DNA of 63,978 nucleotides, the filler included, from Fonticula-like sp. SCN 57-25 (taxonomy: Eukaryota), in assembly GCA_001724245.1 (NCBI GenBank). It is 8 parts of 8 records of this genome, joined end to end, with 100 filler letters (N's around TTAATTAATTAA, not from the genome) between each part and the next. Parts side by side here need not be neighbours in the genome. Positions count along the whole stretch, not along the records: positions 48,332 to 56,213 come from MEDX01000325.1; 7 more parts are not named here. One strand, written 5' to 3'. The number at the start of each line of letters is the position of its first letter. Position 1 is the stretch's first letter. Shown piece by piece: positions 1,418 through 58,479 of this stretch. The notes below the pieces were generated by a model. The model was given only the letters and a program-made list of their open reading frames with translations, was not told where the DNA came from and ran no database searches. The translations under genes and the position numbers were made by a program.

Positions 1418-2940
1418 ATGGCAGACGAACCTGCGGTCGTGCTGGATAGCGGCACGGGGTACACCAAAGTCGGTTTCGCAGGGGACGACGAGCCGAAGAC
1501 GATCTTCAAATCTCTGGTCTACAAGCAGCAAAACCAGGAGTACCTGGTAGGGGAAGAGGTGCCCGAAAAATCAGACACGCCAATGGAGTGTATGTGCCCC
1601 ATTGAATTTGGAATGATAAAAGATTGGGATCTCATGCACCACATTTGGAAGTACTGCTACTCTGGGTTAGTTTGAAGAAAAAAACAAAAAACAAAAAAAC
1701 AACTCACTACTTGCTTATTCACACACATTTCGCAATAATTACGATTACAACCAAAATTACAACCACATTACAATTACAACCAACATTACAACCACATTTC
1801 ATCCATGGTTACAATTCCAATTACAACCACATTTCTCCATGATTACAACACATTACAACCACATTTCATCCATGGTTACAATTCCAATTACAACCAAAAT
1901 TACAATTACACATTACGATGATCACAATTACACCCCCACACACATTCAGTCGCGTGCTAGATGTGAACTCACAAGACCACCCAATTTTGATCAGCGAAAC
2001 ACCGTTGCTCCCAAAGAGCCACCGGGAGCGCCTGTGCCAAGTTCTCTTCGAAACGTACAATGTGCCCGGCCTCTACATTGCGAGCAGCCCCGCGCTCTCG
2101 CTGTACAGCGGCGGACGAACGACGGGCGCCGTGCTCGATGTTGGCGAGCGCGTCACCACCGTTGCCCCCGTGGTCGACGGGTACCTCGCGACCCACGCGT
2201 GCGAGACGCTCCCGCTCGGCGGACACGACATCACCGTTCGCTTCGACACGCTCCTCGCTCCGCGCAACCAGGAGCTCTTCACGGGAATGGGAATGAACGA
2301 CGCGGTGCGTCTGGAGATTGTCCAGGAGGCAAAGGAGAGGCACGCCCTCGTGGTCGCCAATCCGGAGCAGCAGCTTGCCGTTCTTCACAAGATGGTATCC
2401 AAGAAGCAGCAGATGCAGCAGCAACAGGTGCAGCAACAAGTGCAGCAACAGAAGAAGGGTGCTTCTGGTTCGCAGCAACAATCACAGCAACAGCAACAGT
2501 CGCTCGCGGATAAGATTTACGAGTTGCCGGATGGAAACCGATTGGTGATCGGTCCGCAGGAGAGATTCATGTGCACAGAGGTGCTCTTCTCGCCATTCGA
2601 GACACTCGGGCTTGAACTCGACGGGATCCACAAGCAGTTGTTCCACTCAGTCTTTCGTTGTAGCATAGAGCAGCGCAAGGAGCTGTTCAACAATATCGTG
2701 ATCACTGGTGGAACCTCGTTGCTCCCCGGGTTCCAGTCCAGGGTGCAGCAGGAGATTGAACAAATGGTGCCCACTCAGTTCCAGCCCGCAAATGTGATTG
2801 CCTCAAAGGAGAGAAGATTTGGTGCCTGGATGGGTGGTTCCATTGTTGCACAGCTCCCCTCAATGCAACAAATGTGGATTAGAAAAAGGGATTATAATGA
2901 ACATGGCCCGCAAATTATTAATCGAAAAACGTTTGCATAA
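1418..2940 (+). CDS. Divergent actin-related protein (2 exons; intron 1666-1949)
   Basis: VVLDSGTGYTKVGFAGDDEP, HPILISE, GAVLDVG, YELPDG, VITGGTSLLPG, AWMGGSI; the phase-2 GT..AG intron joins YCYSG/RVLD in frame. Confidence 0.9.
1735..1932. repeat. Intronic low-complexity (ATTACA)n-type repeat with a ~65-nt duplicated block
   Basis: Repeated ATTACAACC/ATTACAATT; ACATTACAACCACATTTCATCCATGGTTACAATTCCAATTACAACC occurs twice (~1783 and ~1849). Confidence 0.75.
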
Positions 2941-5401: not shown

Positions 5402-7551
5402 ATGGAATTCAACTACCCTGTTGCCATTCCGTGGGTGATATTCGGTCTTTCAGTGTTCCTGCTGCTGCTTCTGGCAGTCGCTTTTGTGTTTGCGTTCAAG
5501 AGCAGCAAAAAGTGGGCGCTCTTCCCGTCGTTCATAACGATCAGCGGCCTCACTGTCGCGCTCCTCTACAGCTTCCTGATACCAGTCGATATTTTCTCAG
5601 TTTCTCAGATCCTCGATCCGTTGCCCTTTCAGCTGCCTATTCGCATCATCTACTACTCGGTCTTTCTGCTCCTCTTGATCTATGCGACCGCTGTTGTCCC
5701 GTTTGCGTACTTTTGGTACGAAGAGAGTGACGTACGTGCGAGAGTGATTCACACGAACACGAACACTCACTATAATTTTGTTCACACACCATTTTACATT
5801 GAATGTGCAAATGAAATTTAATCTCAAAATGCACACCACATGATGAATTTGTGATGCATGTGATAATATTTGTGATGATGATTAATTTGTGATGCATGTG
5901 ATAATATTTGTGATGACAACATTTCCAGGCTACTTGTGGTTGGCGTGTGATTGGTGCACTCAAGTACACAATTTTCACAATATTGTGTGCGGTACTCCTG
6001 ATTGTGCTTGCGCTCGTGTTGCGTCTCGCTGATCAACGTTTCGACAGCGGTGGAGAGTGGCTACGAGCAATAGTGGATTCCGAGAACTTTGGAGACCGCT
6101 CCCTCTCCTTTCTCGTTGCAGCACTGGTCACCCTTGGTCTCCTCCCGTGGCTGACCTACACCACCTACGGACTCGCAGCGCTGCCCTGGAGCTGTCTGAA
6201 GCGACGTCGTCGCGGCATCACGGGGATCACGGGGAGTGAGCTCACGGATGATAAGGGAGAGCTGCAGCGTCTGGTCCAGGAGGAGATTGGTGAGATCAAG
6301 GAGAACAAGCGGCAGATTCGTCGTGTTCACGAAATGAACAGGAAACCGTTGAGTGCCAAGGAGAGCAGCAGTATGCGTCAGTTCAATGCTCGCTTGCGCT
6401 TTCTACAACAGAAGCTTATGGAGCTCAAGGGAGATGACAGTTCCAGCACATCGACCACCACTGGTCTTATTGCGTGCTGTCGTGCACTGGGTAACTGTCT
6501 GGATAGCGCTCTGCTGTATCCGATTCGTATTATTGTCGGCATTGCTCTACTGATTGTGGTTGCAGTGCTCATGACCAGCATAATTATCTCTCAAATCGAT
6601 CGCACAATGCACAGTAAGTGTGGCTGGACATGTGGTTTTGCGATTGCCAATATTCGTCTTTGGAATCCATTGGACTTTTGTCTCACATTTGCCAGTCAGT
6701 GGTTCCCCCTGGACTATGCCCTGTACACGCTGATATTGTGGCTGGTTCTTGTGGCAACAATTGTAGGACTTGCAACACTGGGTATCAGATTCCTGTGCAT
6801 TCACTTGTACAAGATACGATTCAGAAGTACAGTACCACAGGGCATGCTCACAGCGAGTGTGCTTCTCATGAGCACAGTGCTGATCTTCTCATTTTGGAGT
6901 GTACCCTCCTGGGCACCACAGTACTCTGCATTTGGTGCTCAGCATTTTGTACCCAATATCACTAGTAATGCTACTGGAAATGGTACAAGAACAACAACAA
7001 TGATTGCTCTGAAGGCAACAACTTCATTGAGGACAATGTTCCTGCAACATCTTGCTATTGCCAGTAATGATGGTGACTCCATGGGTAATGCACAGAATGA
7101 AACACTAGTACCCATTTGGTGCAACTATGATGGGATAGTTGTGAATGATGGAACACCAAGCACTAATCGCACACGCAATGGGACAGCACAGCCACATTAT
7201 AATGTGATTGGTCGACCGTGCTATGCAAGCCAAGTCTCCACACTAATGGACAGAATCGCATTGAGAGCGCCCTATTTGTCATTTATCTTCTATGTTGCCA
7301 ACTGGGCATTTGTAGTACTGTTTGTTCTTTACAGCTTGATAGCAATATGCCGATCACCAGCTACCTGTGAAAAGGAGGCAGACTACGACAACGAGAATGG
7401 AGATCAGATGGATGAACATGATGAACAGGATGCAGAGGAAGAGGCCAATCGTATCTTGTCATCCAAACGCTCACGAAGAAATTACTCGTCCAGCAGCAGA
7501 TCACGAAGAAGAGTGGCATCGGAGGACGACTATGACGAAGAAAATCTGTAA
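5402..7551 (+). CDS. LMBRD1: LMBR1-family membrane protein, lysosomal cobalamin transporter LMBD1-like (intron 5732-5928)
   Basis: FLIPVDIF, VPFAYFWYEE, YTTYGLAALP, SQIDRTMHSKCGWTCGF, FPLDY, APQYSAFGAQ; the phase-0 GTACGT..CAG intron joins the two ORFs. Confidence 0.75.
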
Positions 7552-29900: not shown

Positions 29901-32184
29901 GCGGACGCGCTCTCTGGCTCGGGGACGCCGTCGCTGACTGGACTTGGCGGCGCGGCCGCGGCCGACGAAGAGTTTCACAGACTTGTGTCGACGATTGACA
30001 GACCGGCGCTTATGGGAATGCTGCGGCCGCAGTTGTCGCGCGCGCGTGCAAAGGAGGATGACAAGGATAGGAATGTCCGCAGCAGGTCGGGAGGAGCGGC
30101 GGCGTCGGCAGCGTCTGAGTCCGTAGATGCAGTCGTTTCGCTGCCGAGCTCGAACACAAAGATGGTCCGAGGACTTCTCGAACGCGTACGTCTTTTGTTA
30201 TTTTGTTTGTTTTTGTGGTTAATTATGGCTTTCTGGCGCTGTGTGTCTTAATTTGTGACTTTTGTGTGGCTTTTTTTGGTGCATTTTCTTACATTTTTTC
30301 ACTTTACAGAAGGATTCCGTTGCGACAACAATGCGTCGCTCGACAATGTACGCATTTCCTTTTCTTTCCTTTGCTTTTTCTCACCCATTGTGATTGTGCA
30401 GCCGCCGCGACGAGCGCCCCTACGCCACCTCGAGCATGGAAGACCTCGCCGACGAGTTTTCCGGCCGCGCCCGCACGAGCAGCTCTCCCCGCTTCAACTC
30501 ATTTGGCGAGGATGCCACCTCTGGTACCGGCAAGCTCTCCCCTGCCGCCTCCTTCCAGCACGCCGTCATCGCCGGCGACGGCTCGCCCTCGCGCGCGCAC
30601 CTCGACCCGCGCCAGACTGCCCCCGGCGTCCACGTGACCTCCGGCTATGCGTCGAGCGGCTTTACGAGCCCTTCTTCGACCGACGGCGGCGACGCGTCAA
30701 GGACCATCTATTCGCTTGACATGCTGGCCGACCGCCGCGTGTCGGTGCTTCGCGCGGTGCACTCGGACGCGCGCCGCATGACGCGCATGGACACGCGGCC
30801 GTTGTACCCGTCGTGGAAGCCCGAGGGCGTTCTTGTGGCGCACATTACAGAGGACACGGCGGCGATTAATGTTATTGCGGTTGCGCCGGATAAGAGCTTT
30901 TTTGTTACGGGGTCGCAGGATGGAATGCTGCACGTGTTTGACCCGGCGACGTTTGACAAGTTTGATAGGAATACGATGAATACGAGGCCGCGTGTCAGCT
31001 GCCGCATCATCTGTGCGTAGCATTGTTATCGTGATGATTGTGCTTTGTGTTTGCTGTGATATGCAATGTTTAAGGTGTATTTTGTCTTTTGGCGTCTTCG
31101 TCCTTTTTGTGCACTCTTTCCGACATTTTGCGACCTTTTTTCTGACCTTTTTTCGCAGCCTCCGAGCCCGCGATCCGCTGCATTACTTTCCTTGAGCGCT
31201 CGCACGTCTTTGCCGTCGGTTCGCAGGACGGCTGCATCCGCTTCTACCACGTCGAGTGCCCCCAGCCGGCGCAGCAGAGCAGCAACGTGCCCGCCACGGG
31301 CTTTGCCATCGGACTTTTGGCCACGTGGAAGCCCTACGGCGGCGGTTTCCCGCTCGCGATGGAGCAGTACACGGTGGGCGGCAAGGTGCTGCTCGCGTAC
31401 GTGCTGTCGTCGGGCGTCATTTCGTGCGCCGACGTGCGCCAGTGGCGCGAAGAGTGGACATTCGAGCTCGATCGCCCTCATGGTGCGCATTTGTTTTATT
31501 GTTTGGTTCTTATTTTGCGTTGTCTTGCCTGTTTTTGCCAATTGTTTTGTTTTACTGACCACCCTTTTTCAGACCCAGTTGTGGCGTTTGTGATTGACCG
31601 CCGCCGTCAGTGGATGCTTGCCGGCACCGCTCGCGGCCAGCTCATCCTTTACGACCTTCGCTTCCTCATCAAGGTGCGCGTCAGCAGCCTGCCGCCGTCA
31701 TGCACCATCGAGCGCCTCGTGCTTCACCCGGTACGCACTACTTTTTCTTGTTTGCCGCCACTCATAGGTTTGTTTTAGACGACGAACCGCGTGCTGATTG
31801 CAACGAGCTTTAATGAAGTGATTGTCTGGTCGGTCGAGACTGGCGAGCCGACACAAGTGTACGGCGCAGTCGTCATGAACATGTCGCGCTACACTACCGT
31901 ACGCAGCAGCAAACATACATGTTTTTGTTGCTAATGCTGTGCAATTAGGGCGACTGGTCAAAGGTTGGCAGTGATGTTTTGCCGGCGCCGATCCCGACGC
32001 CGTCCGAGCCTCGCCAGGCGACGCGCGCGCTGCTCGTGCCGTCCGACATGCCGTTCTTTTTCAGCGCAGGCACGGACCGCCTGCTGCTGTGCTGGGACAC
32101 GACCGACCCCGACAAGTGCCACGTGATCTCGGGCGTCAAGCCGGGCCACGTCGCAGTGTTTAAGAAGACGGCCGTCAGCGGAGT
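26940..32184 (+). CDS. VPS15: Vps15/PIK3R4 (kinase-HEAT-WD40), ~15 introns, 3'-partial
   Basis: MGN myristoylation start, RFLKT, SLYDRISTRPFL, HGDIKAENV, LSDFA, DTSGRRSCYVAPERF, LDRVLPY, WKPEGVLVAH, WD40 repeats. Confidence 0.93.
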
Positions 32185-40333: not shown

Positions 40334-41417
40334 CCCGCCTGCCTCAGCATCGCCACAAGCTGCCCCTCAAGTTCATGCAGTGTCCCAGCGAGCCCCGCGC
40401 ACGATGCCGTCTGCGATGCCGCCTCGGCCATGCGCGCCTGCACCGCCACGAGCGCAGCGCGCGTCTGACGGTCCGCCTCGGCAGCAGACACAATTGGCTC
40501 TGCCACGTGAACATTCTTTAGCTGATTCTCCTGCTGATCATCTTGATCTTTTTCCCGCTCTTCTTGAGCTTCCTTGTCGTGCTCCTCCTGCTCCTTGGCG
40601 AGCTGCCGCTCAATGTCTTCTGCGAGCTGCTCGAGCCGCAGCACGTCGGCGTCCATCTGCTCGAGCGTGCGCTCCAGAAAGGCGGTCTGGCGGAGATCGT
40701 CGAGCAGCTGCGTCTCGGCCTGGCGGGCAAGCTGGAAAAGCTTGGTGCGATCTTCGGGGCCGACGGCGATCATTGCAGGTGCGGGCATCTGCGCAAGGCG
40801 GCCGTCCATCCTGAAAAGAAGAAGAAAAGGAAAAAAGGAAAGGAAAAAGGAAGGAAATAAGGTTAGAAACATGATGGGACATGACGTGCAGTACACTGCA
40901 AACAAAGAGATATCCAGAGATCCCGACACCGATCCCATGCAGCCATCATCAGAACGTACAGTGCCACGCAGCGGTTCAGGTGTTCCAGGACGAGCGGCTG
41001 GCGCGCCTCTCTTGTGTTTGCAACGACGATGGCCGCGGCATCCCTCAGCAGGCTGACGGTGAACCGCCTTAGATTGTTGGAGAGCGGCCGCCACATGCGC
41101 TGCGCCTTTTCCGACACCGAGTGCGTCCGCTGCATGACGCCGCTCTTTGTGCCCGACACGCGGCGCGGCTTGCGCACGGGCGCAGCCTTCTCCTTTGGCG
41201 GCGCCTTGGGCTTCTTCTCCTTGGGCACCTTCTCCTTTGGCGGTGCCTTCTCCTTGGGCGGCGCCTTCTCCTTGGGCGACTTCTTGGGCGACTTCTTGGG
41301 CGACTTTTTGGGCGAGCTCTCAGCGGGCGCCGCCTTCTCCTTGGGCTTCTTGGCAACGCCCTTGCCGACGCGCGCGGGCGACTTTGACCCCGACGGGGCG
41401 GCCTTGCGGGGCGCCAT
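40334..41417 (-). CDS. CENPQ: CENP-Q/Okp1-like kinetochore protein with SPKK/PKEK N-terminal repeats (intron 40811-40959; 3'-partial)
   Basis: WRPLS..V..L......V..HLN...L...L......P followed by a long coiled coil, resembling CENP-Q WQPLS..HLN..L.VP. Confidence 0.6.
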
Positions 41418-48010: not shown

Positions 48011-48331
48011 CGTGCGTGCTGGCCCACTGCGACCGTGCTCCACTACCTAAATAGGAAAAAGTATGTTTATCCGACCAATAGGGATTTTAGTGCTGACACA
48101 CACCTTCCTAATCGGACGGTGGGCATCAACACAATGGCCATTCGTAAATGAAATGACACAATGCAGCAGATATGGTTCATGCCCAGCACCTTGGATAGCT
48201 TCACTGACAATAGCTATATGATATTTAGGAANNNNNNNNNNNNNNNNNNNNNNNNNNNNNNNNNNNNNNNNNNNNTTAATTAATTAANNNNNNNNNNNNN
48301 NNNNNNNNNNNNNNNNNNNNNNNNNNNNNNN

Positions 48332-49120
48332 CGCACGTCAAACATCTTCAAGAGTTCCTCCTTTGTCATCTCGAGACGCTCAAACACCTGCTTCTCACCC
48401 GCGATCTTGTGGGTCAGCTTGTCGAGGTTTCCATAGTCGGCCTCGGTGACGTGCTCGCCGCCCGGGATGCGCATGTCGTAGAAGAAGCCGTCGTCCGTCG
48501 GCGGGCCGTGCTCGAGGAAGCAGCCAAAGTGGCGCTCGCACGCCTCGCCGAGCATGTGCGCCGATGAGTGCCAAAAGACTTTTTGGGCCTCTTCGTCGGA
48601 AAAGTCGAGCAGCTCGAGGCGGCAGCTCTTTTCGAGGACGCGGAAGAGATCCCAGAGCTGGCCGTCGACGCGCGCGACGATCGTCTTGTTGGCGAGCGAC
48701 TTGCTGATGGCCTCGGCGATGGCGAAGGGGGTGGTCTTCCAGGATGTGCCAGGGCGCACGGTGCCGTCGCGCAGCGTCACCTGGATGTCGACCTGCTCGC
48801 GGGCTGCCACGTGCGAGGGTTAGAAATGGATAAATAACCACCAAGAAAAGCGTACCGGCAAGCTCGGCATCGCGGAGCGCCTTGCACTCTTCGTAGATCT
48901 TGATGCGGTGGGCGATAAAGGCCGGCTGCTCGGCAAGCTAAAAGCCAGGTGGTGAGCATGGGCATGCCACATGCCACGATGCGCGTGAATGTACCTCGAG
49001 GGGGCGCGAGCTCGTGGACTCGTTCGCCTGCTTCTTCACGGGCTTCACCTTCTTGGCGGTGCCATGGGGCTTGGCGGGCGAGGCATCAGCCGGCGCGGCG
49101 GCCGGGATCGCGTCAGCCAT
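48332..49120 (-). CDS. TARS1: Threonyl-tRNA synthetase, cytosolic type, N-terminal part (partial, with introns)
   Basis: TGS domain TTPFAIAEAISKSLA..LWDLFR.LE, VFWHSSAHMLGEACE, GPPTDDGFFYD. Confidence 0.93.
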
Positions 49121-49282
49121 CGTTCCGACGTGAAAACTGGAAAAAAAATCGCCGCCTTTGGCCTGGCACGTTGCGTCAGTGGGTGCGATTCCGCATGCGG
49201 GTTTATGTCAGCAAAAGTCACGTGAAGAAGGTACTTTGACACGTGGCCGTCGTTGCGCTGACGACACGACGCGCGGGGCATC
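49121..49282. promoter_or_regulatory. Short bidirectional promoter region (TARS1/XRN2) with CACGTG E-boxes
   Basis: 162 bp between divergent ATGs; GTCACGTGA at ~49217 and GACACGTGG at ~49238; a similar TCACGTGAC lies at ~56411, upstream of another gene. Confidence 0.4.
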
Positions 49283-52200
49283 ATGGGAGTTCCGGCGCTG
49301 TTCCGGTGGCTCACCAACAAGAACCGCCAGCTCACGTCCCAGGTGATTGAAGAGGTGCCGCGCGTTATCAACGGCGTCGAGATCCCGGTGGACAACACGC
49401 AGGAGAATCCCAACGGCATCGAGTATGACAATCTCTATCTCGACATGAACGGCATCATCCACCCGTGCTGCCATCCCGAAGACAAGGCACGCGAAAATAG
49501 GAACATTTTCATGCACATTAACTAACATTGACAATATTGACGTTTTATTTTGTTGCAGCCTGCCCCCGCGACCGAGGATGAAATGTACGTCGAGATCTTC
49601 AAGTACATTGACCGCATTTTCGGCATGGTCCGCCCCCGCAAGGTCCTCTTCATGGCCATCGGTGCGCCATCTTTCTCCGCATCCGCATCTCTTTTCCCTT
49701 TACTCAACACTTTTTTCTCCTCACAGATGGCGTCGCACCGCGCGCCAAGATGAACCAGCAGCGCTCCCGCCGCTTCCGCGCCGCGCAAGAAGCCACGCTC
49801 GTCAAGGAAGCCGAGGATGACATCCGCGCCCGGCTCATCGCCGAAGGCCGCGACGTCCCCGTCAAGGGCGAGGCGCACTTTGACTCGAACTGTATTACGC
49901 CAGGAACGCCTTTTATGGACAGGCTCGCCACGTGCCTGCACTACTACATGAACAAGAGACTCAGCGAGGATCCCGCATGGGCCAACGTGCGTTTTCAAAA
50001 GTTAATTTCTATATTGGTTTTTGTGTGTATTTTTGTGTATTTTTATGAGTGTTTATGTGTGTTTATTTTTGTTATTTACAACAAAATTGCGCCTTTTTCC
50101 TGTTTTATAAATTCCCGCGCACTTTCCCTTTCCTTTTCCCTTATGACATTCATGTAATATTTTCGTGTTTTTCTCCCTATTTGTTCCAATATTCTTGTGA
50201 CATTCCTGCATTTTCTTTGATATTTCCTTTGTTACATTCATGTTATATTCATATTATATTCATTTTATCCCTCTTTTCCCACTTTCCGCCCCTCACCCCC
50301 CTTATAGGTTAATGTAATTCTTTCCGACGCCACTGTCCCCGGCGAAGGCGAACACAAAATCATGGACTTTATCCGCCGCCAACGCGCCTCCCCCGGCTAC
50401 GACCCCAACACAAAGCACGTGATGTACGGCCTCGACGCTGATCTGATCATGCTCGCGATCGCCACGCACGAGGCACACTTTACTCTCCTTCGCGAAGACG
50501 TCTTTTTCAATGTCAACAAAGAAAGCAAGTGCGCAATTTGTGGTCAGATTGGTCACGTGATGGAGAGGTGTACTGGAGAGGCAAAGGTGAAAGAGGGGAT
50601 GTTTGATGAGAAGAGAAGTAAAGTGGAGGCGAGGAGGCCGTTTGTGTGGTTTTATGTGTACAAGTTGAGGGAGACATTGTTGAACGAACTTGTGGTACGA
50701 AAGAGAGTGGGAAAGAGTGAGGGTTTTTGAGGGTTTTAGAGGGTTGTAGAGGGTTTTTGAGGGTTTTTGGTGCATTTTAGTGCATTTTGATGCTTGTTAG
50801 AGTGTTGATGATTGTTGATACATGTTGTCATGTATTGATGATTGTTGATGATTGTTGACATGTGTTGATGTATGTTGATGATTGTTGATGCATGTTGATA
50901 CATGTTACAGTGTTGATACATGTTGTTGATGCATGTTAAGTGTTACAGTGTTGATACATGATATTGATACATGATATTGATACAGTGTTGATACATGATA
51001 TTGATACATGTTCTATTGATACATGTTCTATTGATACATGTTCTATTGATACATGTACTATTGTTAATACATGTATATTATTTACTTGTATTTTTCTCAT
51101 CTTTTCTTCATTTTTCTTCTCTTTTCTTCTCTTTTCTTCTCTTTTCCCTTCTTCTCACCCACTCTTCTCTTCCACAGGTCAAGTCCCTCCCCTTCCCAGT
51201 CGACCCCGAACGCTTCCTCGACGACTGGGTCTTCCTCTGCTTCTTCGTCGGCAACGACTTTCTCCCCCACATTCCCTCACTCGAAATCCGCGAAAACGCT
51301 GTGGACATGCTTGTGGAGATTTATAGGAACAAGTTGCCTGAATTGGGCGGGTATTTGACAGAAGGGGGGGAAGTGAATGTGGGGAGAGTGGAGAGGGTGA
51401 TGGTGGAGGTGGGGAGGTGTGAGGAGGGCATTTTTCAGAAGAGGAGGGCACTGGGTACGGCGAAAAGATGGGAAGGGAAGGGGGAAGTAGGGAAGAAGGG
51501 GGAAAAAGTGTCATTTTAGGGTGTTTAGGGTGAAATTGTGGTAATTTCATGTCACTTTTTATGGCATTTTAGTGTATTGTATTTGTTGTGTATTGTGTAT
51601 TGTAGAGTGTGTTGGTATGTGTAGTGTGGTAATGTGAATGTTTTTGTGTGGTTTTTTGTTGTTTATTAGACTGTTTTTGTGTGTTTTATAGTATCATTTT
51701 TAATGTCATTTTTGTTGTTGTTTTGACTGTTTTGGTGTCATTTGTGTCACATTTTATTCATTTTTACCTCTTTTTCTTTTCTTTTCTCACTCATTTCCCT
51801 TCACTCCTTTCATAGAGGAACGCCGCAATCGAAATGCTAGGCGTAATTCTGACCACAACAACAAGCGACAGCGCACCGACACTCCCGATGCAGTCAACAA
51901 GGCAGATGACGATGAAGTGCCAGACAATGTTCGTCTGTGGGAGAGTGGATATCGCGAAAGGTGCGAATTTGATTAAGTTATGTTGAATTATATGATGAAA
52001 AAGAGTGTTTTTATTGTATTATATTGTATTATATTGAGATATATTGTAATTTATGATGTTTATCTGTTGTTTTATGATTACTTTATGTTTTATGTATATG
52101 ATGTTTTATGATGAATAATGTTACTTTTATGATATTTTATGATGTTTTATTATGATTTCTATTATTTTATGTTTACTTTTTCTTCTTTTTCCATCTTTTT

Positions 52201-54849
52201 ACCCCTTTTCCCTATTTCTTATCTAATATTCCCTTAGATATTACATGTCCAAGTTTGGCTTTTCCGAATCGGACACTTTTGAAATCAAAAAAGTGGTCCG
52301 TTCATATGTCGAGGGCATTTCGTGGGTGTTAAAGTATTACTATCAAGATGTGCCGTCGTGGAAGTGGTACTTTCCTTATCACTATGCGCCATTTGCGGCG
52401 GATTTCGAGGTACTTTAATGAAAGAGAATAGGGGATTATGGGATGAAGTGATGTAATGTGTATTGTGGTATAAAGTAAAGTATTGTTATGTATTGTGATA
52501 TAAAGTAAAATATTGTTATGTATATTGTGATACATAAAGTATTGTTATGTATTGATGATATAAAGTAAAGTATTGTTATGTATATTATTATCATTGTAAA
52601 GTATTGTTATATATATTATTATATTATTTTACCCTCTTTCATACTTTTTTACTCAACTCTTTCCTTTCTCTTTTCTAGGGCATTTCTGACATGCCCCCCG
52701 TCGAATTCGACCGCGGCACTCCCTTCAAACCATTCGAACAACTCATGAGTGTCTTTCCCGCGTCTTCTGGAAGACATATTCCGAAAGAGTATAGAAAGTT
52801 GATGAGTGCAGAGGATTCGCCAATTTTGGATTTTTATCCGGTGGATTTCCAGAGTGATTTGAACGGGAAAAAGGTATGAGTAAATTTGTAGAGTGTTTAT
52901 AGAGTGTTTATGATGTTTTTTGATGTATTTTGATGTATTTTGATGTTTTATGGTTACTTTTATGGTCACATTTTACTTTTTTATGGTTCAAATTTGGTCA
53001 TTTTTCTCTCGTTTTTGTCCATTTTCATCCATTATTTGTCCATTTTCTCTCATTTTTCATCCATTTTTTGTCCATTTTTCTCTCTTTTTTCATCCATTTT
53101 TCTCACTTTTCACCCTCTTTTTCACTCCCCTCTTCCCCTTTACTCACTCTCCTCTCAGCATTCCTGGCAAGCAGTCGTTCTTCTCCCCTTCATCGACGAA
53201 GCCCGCCTCAAAGCCGCCCTCGCCCCTCTCACACACACACTCACCCCCGACGAGCGACGCATGAACGCACTCGGTGATGACGTCATCGGTGTGAGTCATT
53301 TAAATCCGCTCTTTTCCGACATTTGCGCTCTCTATTCAAGCAACAACGACGGAAAAGAGGGCGAAAATGAGGGAGAAAAACAAGAAAAAGAAGGAGAAGA
53401 GGACGAAAACGACGAAAAAGAAAAAGATTCATCACGTGACTCATCACGTGACACATCAAAGGTGAAACGCACAGTCATCAATCCAGAGCATAGTAATGGT
53501 CTGTTTGGTCTTATTTCGCCCGACAAAAAGGCCGTAATGCCTGGCCAAATTTACCCCTCGCCTATGCCCGATTTGGTCAGTGATATTGAGAGTAGTAATG
53601 CGATGACGGCGGTGTATGAAAGGCCGAGGTTTGAGGAGGGGTTTGTGTTCAAGTGTGCGAGATTGGAAGGCGCAAAGACGCCCAATCTGAGGGTATGCGA
53701 AGGGGGAGTGGGAGAAATATTATTGGAGTTAGTGTTGATTTTATTGGTTTTTTGTTGTTTTAGTGTTATTTTAGTGTTGTTTATGTGTTATTTTGATGTT
53801 ATTCAGTGTCATTTTTGAATGGGTACATTTTTGGTTTGATGTCATTTTAGTGCCATTTTGTGCCATTTTAGTGTTATTTTGTGTCTTTATAGTGCCATTT
53901 TAGGGTCATTTTAGTGACTTTTGTCCCGTTCTCCCTTTCTCCTTTTCTATTCCATTATCTTCCTTATTAATGCCCCTTTCAGCCCAATACTGGACACCGC
54001 CAGCAAGACATTGACAATCGCTGGAACCAACGCCGCCCACGTGGCCCCGACCGCTCCGACTCTGCCCCGCCGCGCTTTGACGACCGCCGCCGCGGCCACG
54101 ACGACGCCGACAGTGACGGCCGCCAATCAAAACGCGGCCGCGGCGACGACGGCCAATCATATGGCCGCGATCATGGGCCACGTGGTCAGAACTATGGTCC
54201 TCCTCAGGGCTATGCCCCTAGGTACGGCCCTCAAGCTGGCTATGGTCAAGGACAAGCATATGGAGCATATGGACAAGGACAAGGACAAGGGTATGGTCAA
54301 GGACCACATGGCCATGATTCACGCTATGGGCCACGTGACCATGGACCACGTGATCACGGACCACGTGACCAAGGTCAGCCTTCCTATGCGCCCCCTCAAG
54401 GCTATGGCCCTCCCCAAGGCTACGCCCCACCTCAAGGCTATGGCCCGCCACATGGCTATGCCCCTCAAGTAGGCTACGGCCCGCCACATGGCCACGCACC
54501 TCAACATGGCTATAACCAACCACGTGGCCATGATTCGTACCCTCCCCGTCCTCAATACCCGCCGTCATCCTCCCCCTATGGCCAGCCCGACTATTACCGC
54601 GGAAATCAGCCGCCGCCCCAGCAAGCCTACTATGCGCCTGCACCGCACGGCGCGGCGGACCCGTATAACAGGGCGGCGAGTGCGCGGCCTGCGCAGGGCG
54701 GGGCGTACACGCCGTATGGGCCGGCGCAGGGGCCGTCGTATGCTGCGGGTGGGCAGCAGCAGGGGTTTGCGCCGATAGGGAGGCCGTTGGGGGGTGGGCC
54801 GCAGGGGCCGCAGGGGCCGCAGCAGCCGCTGTACAGACCGTCGTATTAG
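49283..54849 (+). CDS. XRN2: 5'-3' exoribonuclease 2 (Xrn2/Rat1), 10 exons
   Basis: [55 protein letters not shown], zinc knuckle [26 protein letters not shown]. Introns: 49487-49558 (GC-AG), 49662-49726, 49987-50307, 50695-51177, 51455-51815, 51961-52237, 52410-52678, 52874-53158, 53693-53982. G/Y/P/Q-rich tail. Confidence 0.95.
50800..51075. repeat. Intronic TTGATACATG-based tandem repeats
   Basis: Many TTGATACATG units, including (ATTGATACATGTTCT) x3-4 near 51000-51056. Confidence 0.8.
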
Positions 54850-55201
54850 GATACGCGAAAAAAGAATATTTAAAATATAGTGTCAATTGTGAAGAAGAAA
54901 GTGTCACAAAAGAGGGTATTATGGATACAATATGGTATGCAGCAGCAGGAAGATGATGAATGGCCATACGGAGAAAAATGATGTCCTTTTGTGACATGTA
55001 GTATAGTATTGGTGCGTGGAATGGTGACATTAAAGTACAATAGACAGTGCTACAGTAGTAGTTCACAAAACATCATTTTTGCCCTTTACATTGTGATATA
55101 TATATCATATTAGAGTTACGACAAAGTGCCGAAAAGTGCCAAAAAGTGCCACGTCTGTTCAGTGTGTCACGATTTGTCTGTTTCCCGCGCAATCGGAGGC
55201 G

Positions 55202-55920
55202 ATGCGGTCGACACGCGCGCTTCTTGTGAAAGGAGCAGAGAGCTTTTTAAAGGGCAAGGCGCTGATAGAGCACCAGCCGAGGTTTTGCAAGGCGTCGCCC
55301 GAGGCACTTAATGATGTGCTGAGCGGGGACCTTTTGTTCTGTCCCGATTTTGCCGACGAAGCCGAGGCGGCCGGGATGATGCCCGAGATCGACCAGCGGC
55401 TACGCAAGTTCCGCTACGAGGACGTTCACGTGGACGGCGTCATTGACGGCTACAGAGAAGTGATATTTACGCGCGCTGCTTCGTACCCGTCTTTTGCGGC
55501 GGTGGAGGCGGGCACGGTCAAGGTGGTTCGGGAGCTGATGGCCGCGCCCGACATGGCCATCCTGCCGGCGCACGTGCTCGACCTCTCTGCAAAGGGGTCA
55601 ATAAGGCCGCATGTGGACGGAAAGCATCTTTCGGGCGTGTTTGTTGCGGGGCTGAGTTTGCTGAGCACGCGAATTGTGCGCTTTCGGCACACGCAAAACC
55701 CCAACGCGACAGTCGATTTGATCCTGCCGCCTCGATCTTTTTACATGCAGAGGTACGCTAATTGTTTGTCTTTTATTTGATACTGACGCAATGTGGCAGG
55801 AATGTGTTTAGGTTTGACTATACGCACGAGATTCTGCCGGGCGACACCGCGTTTGATGGTGGTGATCCAATGATCGCCGCAAGGCGAGTATCAGTCATGT
55901 TTAGAGATGCGCTCAATTAA
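55202..55920 (+). CDS. ALKBH7: AlkB homolog 7-like 2OG-Fe(II) dioxygenase (intron 55753-55799)
   Basis: HVDGVIDGYRE, HVLDLSAKGSIRPHVD, AGLSLLS, YTHEIL, RRVSVMFR. Confidence 0.88.
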
Positions 55921-55979
55921 ATGCTATGTACAAAGACACAATAATACATATTTCACGTATATGCCAGAAACACACTTGT

Positions 55980-56213
55980 TTAGACGTTGCGCTGCAGAGC
56001 TATGGCGGCCACGAGCGTCGTGAGCTGACGCATGATCTCGGCCGCCGTCTCATCGGACGACGCCTTCGGGTGGGCCTTGACCCACTGTGCCACTCCGGTA
56101 ATAAAAGCGGCCTAAAATATATTAGCAAAAAGATAAAAAGAAGCATAAACACGTACCTTTGCCTGCTCCACCTTGGCATCAGCGCTATTGTTGCGCATGC
56201 TCTGCACAATCAT
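55980..56213 (-). CDS. 3' end of an unidentified gene (partial, one intron)
   Basis: Spliced ..EQAK/AAFITGVAQWVKAHPKASSDETAAEIMRQL..RNV* with a GTACGT..CTAAT..TAG intron. Confidence 0.5.
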
Positions 56214-56425
56214 NNNNNNNNNNNNNNNNNNNNNNNNNNNNNNNNNNNNNNNNNNNNTTAATTAATTAANNNNNNNNNNNNNNNNNNNNNNNNNNNNNNN
56301 NNNNNNNNNNNNNTGTATTATGTCCTGTAATATATTGTACTTTCTCGCCGGTGCTTTACTGCGCTTCCTTAATGTCCACCCTGTTGATGTTTCCCGCCAT
56401 TACATCGAGATCACGTGACTCCGTG

Positions 56426-58479
56426 ATGTCGGCGGCGGTCTTTGAGCGGTTCCGGCGGCATGACTGGGCGCAGGATGTCAATTTCCTCATGGGCCTCGCC
56501 AACATTCAGCAGAAATGGGCGCCCGAAGGCCTTTCTCCCGCCCAGCTAAAGGAGCGCGTGCAGCAAGTCCAGGCGTTTTACTTTGACAAGTGCGCATGCC
56601 TTATCACATCATTGTTGTCTGACACCACTTTAATCAGGTACGTCGAGCGGCTTGATTATGCCGCCTTTCTCGCGGACGAAGCAAAGCGCCAAGAGGACCT
56701 TTTATTCGAGCGCTTTCTCTCGCACGACTTTGCGGGCGATGCGCGGTACCAGTCGCTGGTCGGCGATCTCGTGTCGAAGCTGCGCGATGGCGGGCAGCAC
56801 GCCGCCGACCAGATCGACAAGGAGATCACCCTCTTCAAGTGCACCTACTTTTCCGAGTGCGTCTCTTTTCTTTGGTGTTCATGGCCGCTCATTGTTATGA
56901 TATCGTTAGAAATGTGGCGCCGATCAATGTCGCATCGCTTCAGACCCGCGCCCTGGCCAACGCCGCCGCGTCGCCCGCCGCCACCGCCGACAAGCTGACA
57001 TGCCCCTTTGGCTTCAAGTCGTCCAACCGCGGCCCCTCAACCGGCCAATTCACTGCTCCCATTGGCCAGGTCCCCGCTGGCATGCCCGCACACGTGGCCA
57101 AAATGCTCGCCATGTCCTCGTCCACCCCGTCTGCACCGCCACCTCAGCCCTCTGACGCTCCCTTCCACCTCTCGCGCACCGCCTCTGGCATGCTCACAGT
57201 CGCCTTTCCTCCGCCGCCCGCCGCCTTTCTTGACTCCCCCCTGGCCACGTGTCGCTTTGGCAACGCTTTCCTGGACGAGTCCAAAACCGCGTCGGCAGCG
57301 CTGCTCGTCATCCCCGGCCCACCCCGCACCGACCCCGCCGACCTCGACCACCTCGAAACAGGTCTCAATCTTATCGGCCACGTGGGCACTTCATCCCTCC
57401 CCATTGTCACGTGCATTGACGGCCACGTGAGCGGCCTGGCCGCGTCCCTTTTCCTTTCCGGCGCCATCCGCATCGTGACGCCATTGGCCGCTGTCGTTCT
57501 TCCGCCGTCTCTGATTGGCTGCCTTGCCGCACTTTGCAATTTGCGCCGCGGCGTCGCAGTTTGCCTGGGCCTTTCTGGTCGGCCGCTCTTTGCAGCTGAC
57601 CTCGTGGCGAGTGGCCTGGCGACGCACTGTGTGGCGGCGGAGCGACTAAGGGAAGTGTGCAAGGCGGCGGCGGCGGCGGCGGGATGTCCTTTTCCGCACA
57701 CTGCTATGGGTATGATAGAGGTAATAATGACGTGTGTATATGCTAATAGGATGATGATGTAGCGATTGAAAAGACGGTTGATGATATGGCGCAGCAGGCG
57801 GGGCCGTCGCGGTTGCGTACATTCGCCAAAGAGATTGACGAGATATTTGGTGTACGTTCATGAGTATTACTTGCTCTATTGGGGATTGCTGGTAATTTAT
57901 GGGTGTCTGTTATGTCTATTGATTGTTCTATTGTGCATATTGTGCTATCATATTGCAGTTTGCAACATGTATTATAGTTTGTTTTGTCTCTTGTCCCTGT
58001 CCCTCATTCGACTCTTCTGCCCATTTTCTGCCTTTCCTCACTTTTCTCCTTAGGCCGATGACGTCACCTTTGCCTCGCTGACCGCCGCCCTTTCCGACCG
58101 CCCCGCGCCCTTCTTCGCCGACGCCCTCTACGCCATCACATCTGCCGGCCAACCCCGCGTCGACCAACTCATCCAGCACATCCACCGCATCCACGTGGAC
58201 AAAAATAACGCCCACGTGGTCGAGCGCGAACTTGCCAAACTTTCCGCTCCGCTTTGCGCGCGCTTTGACGAAAATTCTGTTTCTTCATTGGTGCATCAGC
58301 GCGCGCCGACGTCATCGATGGACGTTGCACTGCAAAAGTTTCGTCGTCCTTTGACTGCCGAGCAGGAGCTTCATATTGTGCGCGTGGCGGGCGAGGCGCC
58401 GTGCACGCCGCTGGAGCGCCCGCTGTACCCGTACTATGCGCTGGCGGGCGTCGACTTTGTCGCGGATGTAAGATGGTAG
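56426..58479 (+). CDS. Tandem DUF5572/PEX39-like repeats fused to a degenerate crotonase (HIBCH-like) domain (introns 56590-56637, 56857-56909, 57710-57762, 57852-58053)
   Basis: Repeats FERFRRHDWAQDVNF..FYF and FERFLSHDFAGDARY..TYF; crotonase PIVTCIDGHVSG..RIVT..LGLSGRPL.AADLVASGLATH. Confidence 0.7.

Follow-up and report, generated by a model that had tools for sequence, protein, structure and literature searches.

In the window (the whole stretch of DNA analyzed here, 63,978 nt), the gene of XRN2, the 5′-3′ exoribonuclease 2, has its coding sequence at 49283..54849 on the + strand, in 10 exons that were assigned from the reading frame, Pfam and an orthologue alignment. The model gives a clean frame of 1047 codons. 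Its product matches XRN_N and XRN_M in Pfam, and residues 1–431 and 441–646 align with named fungal 5′-3′ exoribonuclease 2 proteins, crossing eight of the nine exon junctions. Introns 1 and 2 belong to the short kind, at 72 and 65 nt, and the seven others, introns 3–9, are long (269–483 nt). Intron 3 begins at 49987 and intron 9 ends at 53982, the two limits given in the earlier note.

The seven long introns share a characteristic layout. Intron 3 (49987..50307; 321 nt, donor GTGCGT) is weakly G/T-rich in its 5′ part and strongly C/T-rich in its 3′ part, and contains an AG-free zone of 256 nt. Intron 4 (50695..51177; 483 nt) is composed of 10-nt tandem units (TGAGGGTTTT, TTGATGATTG and TTTTCTTCTC), and its C-free run behind the donor hexamer measures 72 nt, its G-free run before the terminal AG 87 nt. 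In intron 5 (51455..51815; 361 nt), the 5′ half has 64 G and 7 C, and the G-free run before AG is 67 nt. Introns 6 (51961..52237; 277 nt, 21% GC) and 7 (52410..52678; 269 nt, 23% GC) have C-free runs of 97 and 117 nt and G-free runs of 64 and 70 nt, respectively, the former also having an AG-free zone of 197 nt; their 5′ halves are only about 17% G, yet contain 1–3 C. Intron 8 (52874..53158; 285 nt) has a C-free run of 77 nt, a G-free run of 86 nt and an AG-free zone of 252 nt, and intron 9 (53693..53982; 290 nt) has a C-free run of 105 nt and 21 G and 31 C in its 3′ half. C-free runs of 72–117 nt occur in five of the seven introns, and so do G-free runs of 64–87 nt. The frequency of C is about 1% at + 20 to + 80 from the donor, and that of G is 0–1% at − 60 to − 20 from the acceptor. 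When the seven introns are summed, the 5′ halves have G288:C61 and the 3′ halves G111:C227, which bears out the mirror image of the exons described in the earlier note. These introns are tandem-repeat arrays of few independent units, with a private unit in each. Clusters of G runs lie at + 27 in intron 4 and + 16 in intron 5, and XRN2 contains, on its sense strand, all three G4-type motifs of the window's + strand. The acceptor zones of the long introns are long pyrimidine tracts, which the short introns do not have, and are predicted to be unpaired (0.82 vs. 0.52).

A sawtooth is seen in exons 4–9, which span 50308..53692 (50308–50694, 51178–51454, 51816–51960, 52238–52409, 52679–52873 and 53159–53692, all on the + strand): the synonymous sites are C-rich and G-poor at the start of each exon, and G-rich and C-poor at its end. 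The trend is stronger than first stated, and the counts on which it had been based are exact (C27 G11 at 51181–51240; C0 G37 at 51361–51420). Four-fold degenerate sites change from C63 G4 A10 T15 in the first third of these exons to C10 G43 A11 T7 in the last third. The codon switching reported for Arg (CGC 9 to AGG 11) and Val (GTC 8 to GTG 16) was confirmed, and Asp changes from GAC 16/GAT 1 in the first third to GAT 9/GAC 2 in the last third. C-to-T and G-to-A switches (GAT, TTT, GAA and AAA) were also found, and along the whole sense strand T is more frequent than A. The correlation between the position in the exon and G3 − C3 was 0.456, as compared with 0.043 ± 0.037 in synonymous shuffles, none of which (0/5000) reached the observed value.

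The last exon (53983..54849, + strand) has C38 G4 at third positions in its first 180 nt and G38 C3 in the last 150 nt of the coding sequence. No annotated donor follows this G-rich end, and a donor-like GTGCGT is located at 55012–55017 in the 3′ flank. The tail of the protein shifts from Pro/Gln/Tyr-rich to Gly/Ala-rich, tracking the base skew where the protein is unconstrained. No comparable skew was seen at 11 other gene ends.

The long introns of the window, defined as those of at least 120 nt, number 13 on five separate contigs and fall into three composition types. The G-to-C polarity is alike in 10 of the 13, across the five contigs, and the exonic effect is absent at four (1666–1949, 5732–5928, 30186–30309 and 40811–40959). 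An intron of 202 nt at 57852..58053 (+), in another gene and on another contig than XRN2, has the G/T-then-C/T layout; the G zone on its upstream side begins at about 57630 and takes in a 53-nt intron, and in the downstream exon third positions have C30 G3 in 120 nt. In the Vps15-like gene (+), the 146-nt intron 31013..31158 changes from G17 C5 at the 5′ end to G8 C17 at the 3′ end, and the third positions of its exons have G4 C12 downstream and G7 C7 upstream. In the other Vps15-like intron (30186..30309; 124 nt), the skew is confined to the 5′ half (G14 C6), and the whole length (122 nt) is AG-free. The further examples cited in the earlier note, Vps15 (30400–31160) and 57600–58150, are thus borne out in part. 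On the − strand, the 149-nt intron 40811..40959 has, in gene orientation, G20 C10 at the 5′ end and G1 C17 at the 3′ end, with unskewed exon flanks. Two introns have other compositions. The intron 5732..5928 (+; 197 nt) of an LMBR1-like gene reverses the polarity, its 5′ end being rich in CA and its 3′ end in TG, and is AG-free for 182 nt. The intron 1666..1949 (+; 284 nt, donor GTTAGT) of a divergent actin-like gene consists of (ATTACAACCAC)n repeats, is A/C-rich and G-poor throughout, is AG-free for 270 nt, and has unskewed exon flanks.

The skew depends on intron length. An ad hoc prediction that used the donor motif as a filter yielded 67 introns, of which 66 entered the length analysis; 51 of the 67 are no longer than 72 nt and form a short class of 38–72 nt (median, 51). 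No skew was seen on either side for the introns below 60 nt (n = 42), and those of 60–85 nt (n = 9) are C-rich in both halves. The skew is + 0.20 and − 0.27 in the 5′ and 3′ intron parts at 86–202 nt (n = 8), with exons near zero, and + 0.94 and − 0.95 above 202 nt (n = 7, every one of which belongs to the single gene XRN2), with + 0.46 and − 0.59 at the exonic third positions. Across the called introns, the skew grows with length and is anchored at the splice sites. Because it is splice-site-anchored, length-dependent and present at synonymous sites, an extended, length-dependent constraint related to splicing is a fair reading. The extended splicing code suggested earlier is supported in this respect, but its G:C bridging mechanism is not, as discussed below.

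Standard introns have a rigid donor, GTRCGY. From the 51 predicted short introns, the putative branch motif CTNAY was derived, which occurs in 36 of them (YTNAY in 43), with the branch A at a median of 16 nt from the 3′ end. In the long XRN2 introns, the first CTNAY is found at 305 of 321 nt (intron 3), 401 of 483, 331 of 361, 262 of 277 and 175 of 285 nt, and is absent in two. We counted the AGs between the first CTNAY lying at least 20 nt from the donor and the true acceptor. There were none in all 13 introns of at least 120 nt, while interior shuffles gave 55.6 ± 11.8 (minimum, 23; 0/500 reached zero); with the looser YTNAY, 26 AGs were found against 87.0 ± 8.3 (0/500). In the 11 sawtooth introns, this rule is not independent evidence, because it is a direct consequence of the segregation of C and G. 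The independent tests are only two, namely the introns 1666–1949 and 5732–5928, which break the G-to-C polarity: both obey the rule, their AG-free zones of 270 and 182 nt were each reached in none of 300 shuffles, and for YTNAY the fractions of shuffles at or below the observed values were 0.014 and 0.012. GT is likewise scarce, with GT-free zones of 53–88 nt in 10 of the 13 introns and 51 GTs in the last 90 nt of the long introns, as compared with 90.5 ± 7.6 (0/500 shuffles). At the exon starts that follow, AG occurs 19 times against 35.2 ± 3.7 expected (0/2000) and GT 23 times as compared with 33.1 ± 3.2 (as few or fewer in a fraction of 0.001), and codons avoiding AG prevail there (GAA 9/GAG 2, CAA 3/CAG 0, CGC 9/AGG 1 and TCC 7/AGT 1). 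The upstream exon ends are, by contrast, enriched in GT (50 vs. 39.6 expected) and AG (64 vs. 41.4), and no avoidance of decoy donors was seen in them (GTRYG, 5 vs. 2.8 expected). Consensus donors inside the introns, a very rare motif, number one against 2.2 expected. A count of cryptic donor–acceptor pairs 38–90 nt apart by position weight matrices gave 20 vs. 27.5 ± 5.8, which is not significantly low (20/200 shuffles at or below).

The long introns and the adjoining coding sequence avoid C near the intron start and G near the intron end, overriding codon choice. The best explanation, which we hold tentatively, is that the sawtooth is the footprint of nucleotide-exclusion zones, by which decoy 3′ splice sites are kept out of the rare long introns. 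The first 70–120 nt or so after the donor are C-free, so that no branch motif is possible there, and the last 65–90 nt or so are G-free and therefore without AG and GT. With AG missing for up to 270 nt ahead of the acceptor, the authentic 3′ splice site is consequently the first branch motif followed by AG downstream of the donor. The zone lengths match the short-intron size class; a decoy within this range would make for an ideal short intron, short-circuiting the splicing of the long one. The long introns consist of private tandem repeats of about 10 nt, from which they would have grown, and at each end only certain repeat compositions occur. The exclusion of G carries on for about 100 nt of the downstream exon, in which AG and GT are depleted by the choice of NAA, CGN and TCN codons. 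The C-poor, purine-/G-rich upstream exon ends are more suggestive of an enhancer-type widening of the donor context than of decoy avoidance, and the complementarity of the intron ends would be a by-product. The zones, their dependence on intron length, the overriding of synonymous choice and the lack of AG between branch motif and acceptor are observed, and we infer selection for correct splice-site pairing as their cause. Depletion is sharp and enrichment is not (introns 6 and 7), which was counted in favor of exclusion, as was the lack of skew around the 42 introns below 60 nt. The count of cryptic donor–acceptor pairs, the G-rich end of the last XRN2 exon and the missing exonic effect at four of the 13 long introns were counted against it, and the avoidance of C in the upstream exon ends is left unexplained.

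The mechanism of the earlier note, in which the G-rich zone straddling the donor would pair with the C-rich zone straddling the acceptor, loop out the long intron and join the splice sites, seems rather unlikely to us. In the predicted minimum free energy (MFE) structures of the XRN2 introns alone, the first and last 100 nt are paired by 29–62 bp in six of the seven long introns, while whole-intron shuffles give 9–17 bp (at most 2/25 reach the native value), and the native MFEs lie below those of such shuffles (z about − 1.3 to − 9). In introns 4, 5 and 8, imperfect inverted repeats of 16–20 nt (75–81% complementary) lie directly beside the two splice sites, keeping C out of one zone and G out of the other would also prevent self-folding of each zone, and the intron 5732–5928 of reversed polarity still has complementary ends, like those described in zebrafish (Lin et al. 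2016; PMC4691745). These predicted end-to-end folds weakly support pairing at the level of composition. However, when 60-nt exon flanks were included, the native MFE did not fall below that of global or zone-preserving shuffles for 14 of the 15 introns of at least 86 nt. By the comparison with composition-matched shuffles that the earlier note had named as decisive, bridging thus gains no support. The duplex energy of donor and acceptor zones was − 59.2 for cognate and − 55.8 for non-cognate combinations (donor with donor, − 54; random coding 160-mers, − 70), and the cognate acceptor ranked 1, 9, 3, 6, 5, 2, 10, 11, 5, 8, 1 and 1 among 12. Both zones are about 50% U, so that many U-opposite-U positions would arise in a helix. 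Lin et al. (2016; PMC4691745) ask, in the part available, whether pairing occurs across the intron or across the exon; here, the summed predicted pairing, in values not normalized, is 238 across exons and 205 across introns. Five of the 13 long introns (those starting at 49987, 1666, 40811, 30186 and 31013) have no excess of end-to-end pairs, that at 5732 is borderline (4/25 shuffles reach it), and that at 1666 has an MFE of − 12 kcal/mol over 284 nt. The long pyrimidine tracts are also unlike the U2AF2-independent fish class, and no annotated donor follows the G-rich end of the last XRN2 exon.

Another reading, to which we give still less credence, is that the G/U-rich, C-free donor zones and the C/U-rich, G-free acceptor zones are platforms for hnRNP-, TIA-, PTB- or U2AF-like proteins, i.e., extended enhancers, intronic as well as exonic, through which the long introns would be defined or looped out, the purine-rich exon ends serving as ESEs. 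Available parts of earlier reports offer precedents: G-rich and C-rich intronic splicing enhancers acting additively without requiring a stem (Murray et al. 2008; PMC2481429), hnRNP sites at both ends stimulating the splicing of enlarged introns via looping (Martinez-Contreras et al. 2006; PMC1326234), and more exonic enhancer signal beside long introns (PMC1713244, PMC4476162). The AG enrichment of the purine-/G-rich upstream exon ends, the G-run clusters and G4-type motifs of XRN2, and the predicted unpaired pyrimidine tracts peculiar to long introns fit this. Nevertheless, no common motif was found, each intron having its own repeat unit; 7 of the 13 long introns have fewer than two GGG in their first 40 nt (none at all in introns 3, 6 and 8), C is missing from the AT-rich introns 6 and 7 but G is not enriched in them, and the A/C-rich intron 1666–1949 has neither type of zone. 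The C-to-T and G-to-A codon switches also suit base exclusion better than motif gain. It is more improbable again that the skew has no function and arose from strand-asymmetric mutation (transcription- or R-loop-associated) with repeat slippage, the synonymous sites drifting along. Transcription-coupled asymmetry gives an excess of T over A on the sense strand, as seen here throughout, the long introns are tandem arrays, the XRN2 tail follows the skew, and the last exon of this gene has a G-rich end that no annotated donor follows. Against this, the sign flips twice per exon–intron unit at the splice sites; a single process would have to eliminate C from one zone and G from the adjacent one; the effect varies with intron length and was not seen around the 42 short introns; 10 of the 13 long introns on five contigs share the polarity; 11 other gene ends are without such skew; and introns of unrelated composition keep the AG-free rule.

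The sawtooth, read as exclusion zones, is a variant on known splicing-coupled composition. The earlier note knew of no description of such a pattern at this strength, but zebrafish introns of the form (AC)m...(GT)n and human introns of the form GGG...CCC have been described (Lin et al. 2016, Genome Res; PMC4691745). To judge from the available part of that paper, the likenesses are simple-repeat expansions with opposite, complementary composition at the two intron ends, G-rich after the 5′ splice site and C-rich before the 3′ splice site, the intron 5732–5928 showing the fish arrangement. The differences are repeat units of about 10 nt instead of dinucleotides, G/U-rich and C/U-rich ends that make poor helices without stability beyond zone-preserving shuffles, long pyrimidine tracts, and zones reaching about 100 nt into coding exons. 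None of the 13 long introns here has the 3×GGG/3×CCC pattern. The AG-dinucleotide exclusion zones with distant branch points of Gooding et al. (2006, Genome Biol; PMC1431707), as far as that text was available, are similar in the long AG-free stretches before the acceptor and the use of the first AG past the branch point. Here, however, these zones (66–270 nt) are linked with the length of the intron in a genome of tiny introns, arise mostly by total exclusion of G, with branch points predicted by motif, and are paired with a C-free zone lacking the branch motif after the donor. Near exon ends, splicing is known to constrain synonymous sites and amino acids, more strongly beside long introns, from the available portions of three papers (Dewey et al. 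2006, PMC1713244; Wu and Hurst 2015, PMC4476162; Warnecke et al. 2008, PMC2374712); codon choice at the boundaries here likewise departs from the gene norm and scales with flanking intron size. As compared with them, the amplitude is C63:G4 to C10:G43 at four-fold sites within single exons, the signs are opposite at the two exon ends, and a whole base is excluded instead of hexamers being enriched. The G- and C-rich elements in the accessible parts of PMC2481429 and PMC1326234 similarly aid recognition within one intron, and those at both ends aid long introns; they are short vertebrate intron motifs, while the zones here have no common motif and consist in the absence of a base.

One protein of the window has a Physarum transcript as its best named relative (51% identity), the source organism here not being Physarum. 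Trzcinska-Danielewicz and Fronk in 2000 reportedly described repeat-built, pyrimidine-rich introns of Physarum polycephalum. The portion available of Schaap et al. (2015; PMC4758236) also presents the introns of this species as repeat-built and pyrimidine-rich and describes neither a G/T-to-C/T switch nor an exonic skew. The long introns here resemble them in being made of long simple repeats between splice signals, and the coding strand is likewise pyrimidine/T-rich throughout.

The gene for 5′-3′ exoribonuclease 2 (XRN2/Rat1; 49283–54849, + strand) was built as a model of ten exons (49283–49486, 49559–49661, 49727–49986, 50308–50694, 51178–51454, 51816–51960, 52238–52409, 52679–52873, 53159–53692 and 53983–54849), with an unbroken frame of 1047 codons. 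By Pfam, exon 4 carries XRN_N and exon 9 carries XRN_M. Against named fungal 5′-3′ exoribonuclease 2 proteins, the spliced product is 52–58% identical over aa 1–431 and 441–646, an alignment in which 8 of the 9 exon junctions are crossed. The first two introns measure 72 and 65 nt, and introns 3–9 are 321, 483, 361, 277, 269, 285 and 290 nt, with a GC content of 21–34% and a sense-strand T content of 45–55%. The tract 49987–53982, in which the earlier note had described a sawtooth (exons starting C-rich and ending G-rich, introns G/T-rich and then C/T-rich), coincides to the base with the span from the start of intron 3 to the end of intron 9. Intron 1 (49487–49558) is a GC-AG intron with the donor GCACGC.

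The exonic counts reported for this tract proved exact: 51181–51240 contains 27 C and 11 G, and 51361–51420 contains 0 C and 37 G. The introns mirror the exons, as had been claimed: summed over the seven long XRN2 introns, the 5′ halves contain 288 G and 61 C, and the 3′ halves 111 G and 227 C. In the aggregate profile of these introns, T stays at about 50% all along, C is about 1% at +20 to +80 from the donor, and G is 0–1% at −60 to −20 from the acceptor. A C-free run of 72–117 nt follows the donor hexamer in five of the seven introns, and a G-free run of 64–87 nt precedes the AG in five of the seven.

The same swing is found at the synonymous sites. The four-fold degenerate sites of exons 4–9 have 63 C, 4 G, 10 A and 15 T in the first third of the exons, and 10 C, 43 G, 11 A and 7 T in the last third; in XRN2, these sites go from nearly G-less to nearly C-less over 150–400 nt. 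Along exons 4–9, the switches already noticed for Arg (CGC to AGG) and Val (GTC to GTG) were confirmed, and further ones were found for Leu (CTC to TTG), Ser (TCC to AGT), Asp (GAC to GAT) and Glu (GAA to GAG). The correlation between exon position and G3–C3 is 0.456, versus 0.043 ± 0.037 in synonymous shuffles within the same exons, and none of 5000 shuffles reached the observed value. For all positions the correlation is 0.365, and the amino-acid sequence alone gives just about 0.07 (exons 4–9). By the synonymous shuffles, codon usage near the exon ends thus departs from that in the rest of XRN2 beyond the level dictated by the protein.

The last exon of XRN2 also ends G-rich: its final 150 nt have 38 G and 3 C at third positions, with no annotated donor after it. 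Such a G-rich end was found at none of the 11 other gene ends checked. A donor-like GTGCGT lies at 55012, 163 nt 3′ of the stop codon, and about 100 nt past it (55012–55112) there is a TTAG, with branch-like TTCAC/TTTAC before it. This GTGCGT could mark a predicted, unannotated 3′-UTR intron of XRN2; if present, the intron would mean that the last exon's G-rich end does precede a donor.

The relation of the skew to intron length was examined with the introns of the window. These were obtained with an ad hoc gene finder, of whose predictions only those with a GTRYG donor were kept (66), together with 1666–1949 from the Pfam actin alignment. The gene finder was noisy: its strand choice was unreliable in GC-rich coding sequence, it predicted genes through the fillers, and its self-training diverged (755–1007 'introns'). 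The fillers (7980–8079, 16055–16154, 24131–24230, 32185–32284, 40234–40333, 48232–48331 and 56214–56313), each composed of 44 N, the 12-nt word TTAATTAATTAA with stops in all frames and 44 N, separate at least eight parts of about 7.7–8.0 kb in roughly descending length, and XRN2 lies on the part 48332–56213. Genes on either side of a filler are therefore not neighbours, and ORFs or 'introns' crossing it are artefacts; the N-run 'introns' at 16039–16208, 24019–24238, 32174–32312, 40182–40342, 48204–48343 and 56195–56409 were dropped as such.

The 67 called introns consist of 51 of 38–72 nt, 6 of 86–149 nt and 10 of 197–483 nt, with a median of 53 nt. Their donors are overwhelmingly GTACGC, GTACGT or GTGCGC, and 59 of the 67 start with GTRCG (for example, at 27684, 31731, 42072 and, on the − strand, 46414). 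GTRCGY is over-represented window-wide (227 versus 167 ± 14 expected). Among the 51 short introns, the branch-like motif CTNAY occurs in 36 and its looser form YTNAY in 43, the branch A being a median of 16 nt from the 3′ end; a pyrimidine tract is mostly missing.

The skew was larger at longer introns, in length classes that cover 66 introns, are small in number and, in the longest class, represent one gene, XRN2. Introns shorter than 60 nt (n = 42) have no swing in the intron or in the flanking exons, where third positions have a skew of about −0.1 on either side; the weakness of the effect at introns of about 50 nt had been noted before. In introns of 60–85 nt (n = 9) both halves are C-rich. 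Those of 86–202 nt (n = 8) have skews of +0.20 in the 5′ half and −0.27 in the 3′ half, with exons near zero overall, and those longer than 202 nt (n = 7, all XRN2) have +0.94/−0.95 in the intron and +0.46/−0.59 at exon third positions.

The sawtooth had also been extended to two other loci, and this extension held in part. In the region 57600–58150 (+), the exon downstream of the intron 57852–58053 has 30 C and 3 G at third positions in 120 nt, and the upstream exon has 15 G and 3 C. In the Vps15-like gene, the exonic effect is one-sided at one intron (31013–31158, +) and absent at the other (30186–30309, +). These two loci are on parts other than that of XRN2, so they are separate loci and constitute more independent evidence. 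Altogether, the exonic effect is absent at 4 of the 13 long introns: 30186–30309, 40811–40959, 5732–5928 and 1666–1949.

Tandem Repeats Finder (TRF) resolved the long introns into tandem arrays, whose units are private and recur about every 10–11 nt (TGAGGGTTTT, TTGATGATTG, TGTTGATACA, TTTTCTTCTC, TTTATGATGT, CATTTTTCTC and TTAGTGTTATT). The long introns evidently grew through local duplication. As to introners (transposon-derived introns), for which shared sequence is the criterion, TRF gives a different repeat unit for each intron. No Rfam family was found in the window, so the long introns are not explained by hosted snoRNAs or similar RNAs. Every 10–11-nt unit contains a run of T4–5, which results in phased T-tracts at 50718–51146, 52050–52158, 52907–53104 and 53729–53916; T-tracts phased at 10–11 nt are known to cause DNA bending or nucleosome positioning. 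At 24000 lies a consensus donor GTACGT, after which T-rich repeats of the CAATTTTC type continue into the right end of the third part (24000–24130). This suggests that the assembly breaks at long repetitive introns, which may therefore be under-represented in it.

Two of the long introns do not follow the G-to-C polarity. The intron 5732–5928 of an LMBR1-like gene is CA-rich and then TG-rich, and the intron 1666–1949 is A/C-rich and G-poor throughout. The latter, a 284-nt intron with the nearly G-free make-up (ATTACAACCAC)n and the non-consensus donor GTTAGT, belongs to a divergent actin-related gene (1419–2940, +), whose nearest database relative besides itself is 51% identical. The region before the acceptor is AG-free for 182 nt in 5732–5928 and for 270 nt in 1666–1949 (0 of 300 shuffles each), and the first CTNAY lies at +34 and +37, respectively. 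In the long XRN2 introns the AG-free zone is 66–256 nt, and the first CTNAY lies at 305/321, 401/483, 331/361, 262/277 and 175/285 (position/intron length), with none in two.

A simple rule was found for the introns of at least 120 nt: in 13 of 13, the true acceptor is the only AG after the first CTNAY that lies 20 nt or more past the donor. The extra AGs number 0, versus 55.6 ± 11.8 in interior shuffles (minimum 23; 0 of 500 at or below); with YTNAY they number 26, versus 87.0 ± 8.3 (0 of 500). Because the segregation of C and G itself brings about this rule, it is not independent of the skew in the 11 segregated introns. Long AG-exclusion zones upstream of the acceptor, bounded at their upstream edge by a distant branch point, are described in the available part of Gooding et al. 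(2006; PMC1431707). By that criterion as given there, the ten introns of at least 197 nt have zones of 66–270 nt, versus shuffle means of 15–60 nt. In eight of these ten introns, a fraction of at most 0.017 of the shuffles reach the observed length, and the median AG-free zone of the short introns is 38 nt. Candidate branch motifs of the CTNAY type lie 13–30 nt from the AG in XRN2 introns.

GT is likewise depleted in the last 90 nt of the long introns (51 versus 90.5 ± 7.6 in shuffles), and GT-free zones of 53–88 nt occur in 10 of 13. A C-free stretch can contain no branch motif, and a G-free stretch excludes both AG and GT. At about 70–120 nt (C-free) and 65–90 nt (G-free), the strict zones span the normal sizes of short introns, 38–72 nt. 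In the exons, where AG, GT and CTNAY were counted, the depletion extends into those that follow long introns: their first 100 nt have 19 AG, versus 35.2 ± 3.7 (0 of 2000), and 23 GT, versus 33.1, a result of the use of NAA, CGN and TCN codons. At the exon ends preceding long introns, GT, AG and GTRYG are enriched, not depleted; these ends look like purine-/G-rich enhancer-type sequence. Decoy avoidance does not fit them, nor does it account for the C-avoidance there. A count of cryptic donor-acceptor pairs by PWM was not significant, the 30-nt acceptor matrix being low in information.

The earlier note had proposed that the G-rich donor zone (the flank of the 5′ splice site) pairs with the C-rich acceptor zone (that of the 3′ splice site) to bridge long introns. 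Support for this model was weak. With 60-nt exon flanks included, the MFE of 14 of the 15 introns of at least 86 nt is no lower than in global shuffles or in zone-preserving ones, which keep the local composition; the exception is intron 4 (z about −8). The global shuffles with flanks are uninformative, since they spread G and C from the exons through the intron. In RNAduplex comparisons of 160-nt zones, whose energies are governed by length and GC and are non-discriminating, cognate (−59.2) and non-cognate (−55.8) donor-acceptor duplexes are alike; donor × donor gives −54, acceptor × acceptor −28 and random coding 160-mers −70. Relative to zone shuffles, the Z-scores lie between −2.6 and +1.5.

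When the introns were folded alone, the first and last 100 nt paired by 29–62 bp in six of the seven long XRN2 introns (9–17 bp in whole-intron shuffles), and the folds of six of the seven were somewhat more stable than those of whole-intron shuffles. Imperfect inverted repeats adjoin both splice sites in introns 4, 5 and 8. The end-to-end pairing is as expected from G's at one end and C's at the other, rather than a sign of specific complementarity. An excess of such pairs is absent in intron 3 and in the introns at 1666, 40811, 30186 and 31013, and borderline at 5732. In consecutive long introns, every G zone has a C zone on both sides, and the predicted pairing of donor zones sums to 238 across the exon and 205 across their own intron, unnormalised values from a windowed partition function that give only a rough ratio (per-base sums exceed 1). 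An 'open splice site' model was rejected because it explains one side: predicted local accessibility is raised at acceptor zones (0.82 versus 0.52) and barely at donors (0.46 versus 0.38). G-quadruplexes were rejected as a general explanation, there being just three motifs. All three + strand motifs of this type in the window lie in XRN2, two of them shortly after the 5′ splice sites of introns 4 and 5 (50721–50753 and 51470–51502), and the third where the last exon ends G-rich (54789–54816).

The earlier note knew of no description of this pattern at such strength. Related phenomena are in print: zebrafish (AC)m-(GT)n bridging introns and human GGG…CCC introns are treated by Lin et al. (2016; PMC4691745). 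According to the accessible text of that paper, the fish class has AC and GT dinucleotide repeats, complementary to each other, at the two boundaries of the intron, forming a structure far more stable than shuffles; the elements are found together across introns rather than across exons, and splicing is U2AF2-independent. In contrast to that class, the introns here have long pyrimidine tracts. The first 100 nt of the long XRN2 introns contain no ACAC/CACA in six and one in intron 8, and the last 100 nt contain no GTGT/TGTG in six and three in intron 5; both elements occur in only 1 of the 13 long introns, 5732–5928 (8 and 6). The human criterion as stated there, a minimum of three GGG within the first 40 nt and of three CCC within the last 40 nt, applies to 0 of 13 (GGG/CCC in XRN2: intron 4, 3/2; intron 5, 4/1; intron 3, 0/5; intron 6, 0/3). 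By these sequence criteria the XRN2 introns fall outside both structured classes, and the length of their AG-free zones places them with the introns that have long AG-exclusion zones. Enhancer-related codon bias rising with intron size, as presented in the portions available of PMC1713244, PMC4476162 and PMC2374712, shares with XRN2 the growth of an exon-end synonymous effect with the length of the flanking intron. An exon-spanning C-to-G sawtooth was not found, nor was any description of paired C-free and G-free zones reaching about 100 nt into exons and flipping four-fold sites so far, in the literature searched, which lacked most subscription journals.

What could give rise to the sawtooth? 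It may plausibly be the footprint of nucleotide-exclusion zones, the complementarity of the intron ends being a by-product. Such zones would enable a spliceosome that is adapted to introns of about 50 nt to cope with rare long ones: a decoy within the short-intron size range would make an 'ideal' short intron, and the zones would cover that range. It is also possible, and put forward more tentatively, that lengthening is tolerated only with about 100 nt C-free around the donor and about 100 nt G-free around the acceptor, overriding codon usage and, where the protein allows, amino acids, with loose G:C/G:U end pairing perhaps adding to the effect. The AG rule and the AG and GT depletion after long introns are consistent with exclusion; the enriched GT and AG at upstream exon ends are not. 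The reading is also weakened by the non-significant PWM count and by the dependence of the rule on the skew in the 11 segregated introns.

Bridging of the intron ends by compositional RNA pairing seems unlikely: the intron-only folds and the inverted repeats of introns 4, 5 and 8 speak for it, and the likeness of cognate and non-cognate duplexes speaks against it. Zones acting as platforms for binding proteins are quite unlikely. G-rich and C-rich intronic enhancers (PMC2481429) and hnRNP looping of enlarged introns (PMC1326234) are reported in the parts of those papers at hand, and the upstream exon ends have an enhancer-like composition; the A/C-rich intron 1666–1949 has neither kind of zone. 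Mutational asymmetry combined with repeat growth is very unlikely: the repeat arrays accord with growth by duplication, the synonymous shift in exons occurs at long introns and not at those shorter than 60 nt, and the AG rule also covers 5732–5928 and 1666–1949, which break the polarity.

If the exclusion code is true, splicing fidelity, not translation, would dominate synonymous-site evolution in a natural system, and what it costs to lengthen an intron could be directly legible in the sequence. The question bears on how intron-definition spliceosomes handle occasional long introns, and on how far splicing accuracy constrains coding sequence, here visible in a single gene. Should the AG rule hold genome-wide, it would provide a sequence-only predictor of the introns able to lengthen and a natural test bed for decoy avoidance versus RNA bridging. 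It would also call for caution in codon-usage and selection analyses of such genomes, and may account for the breaking-up of such genes by predictors that were trained on tiny introns.

XRN2 itself may be broken at its long introns in public gene predictions. A search with exon 4 (50308–50694) gave, among proteins longer than the query, no identical match in the database, the best being 74% over half of the query; unlike this exon, other proteins of the window are present in the database letter for letter. In size, the introns are similar to the ones given for Protostelium genomes in the available text of PMC5804921, and pyrimidine-rich introns built of repeats are described for Physarum in what could be consulted of PMC4758236. 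The best named relative of one protein of the window is a Physarum transcript (51%). Finally, a myosin-tail gene (32800–33600, +) has an extreme low-complexity coding sequence: a Lys/Glu-rich run of purines (GC skew +0.70) comes first and a Pro/Ala-rich stretch with 84–87% GC next, upstream of SH3, MyTH4, RA-like and FERM domains.
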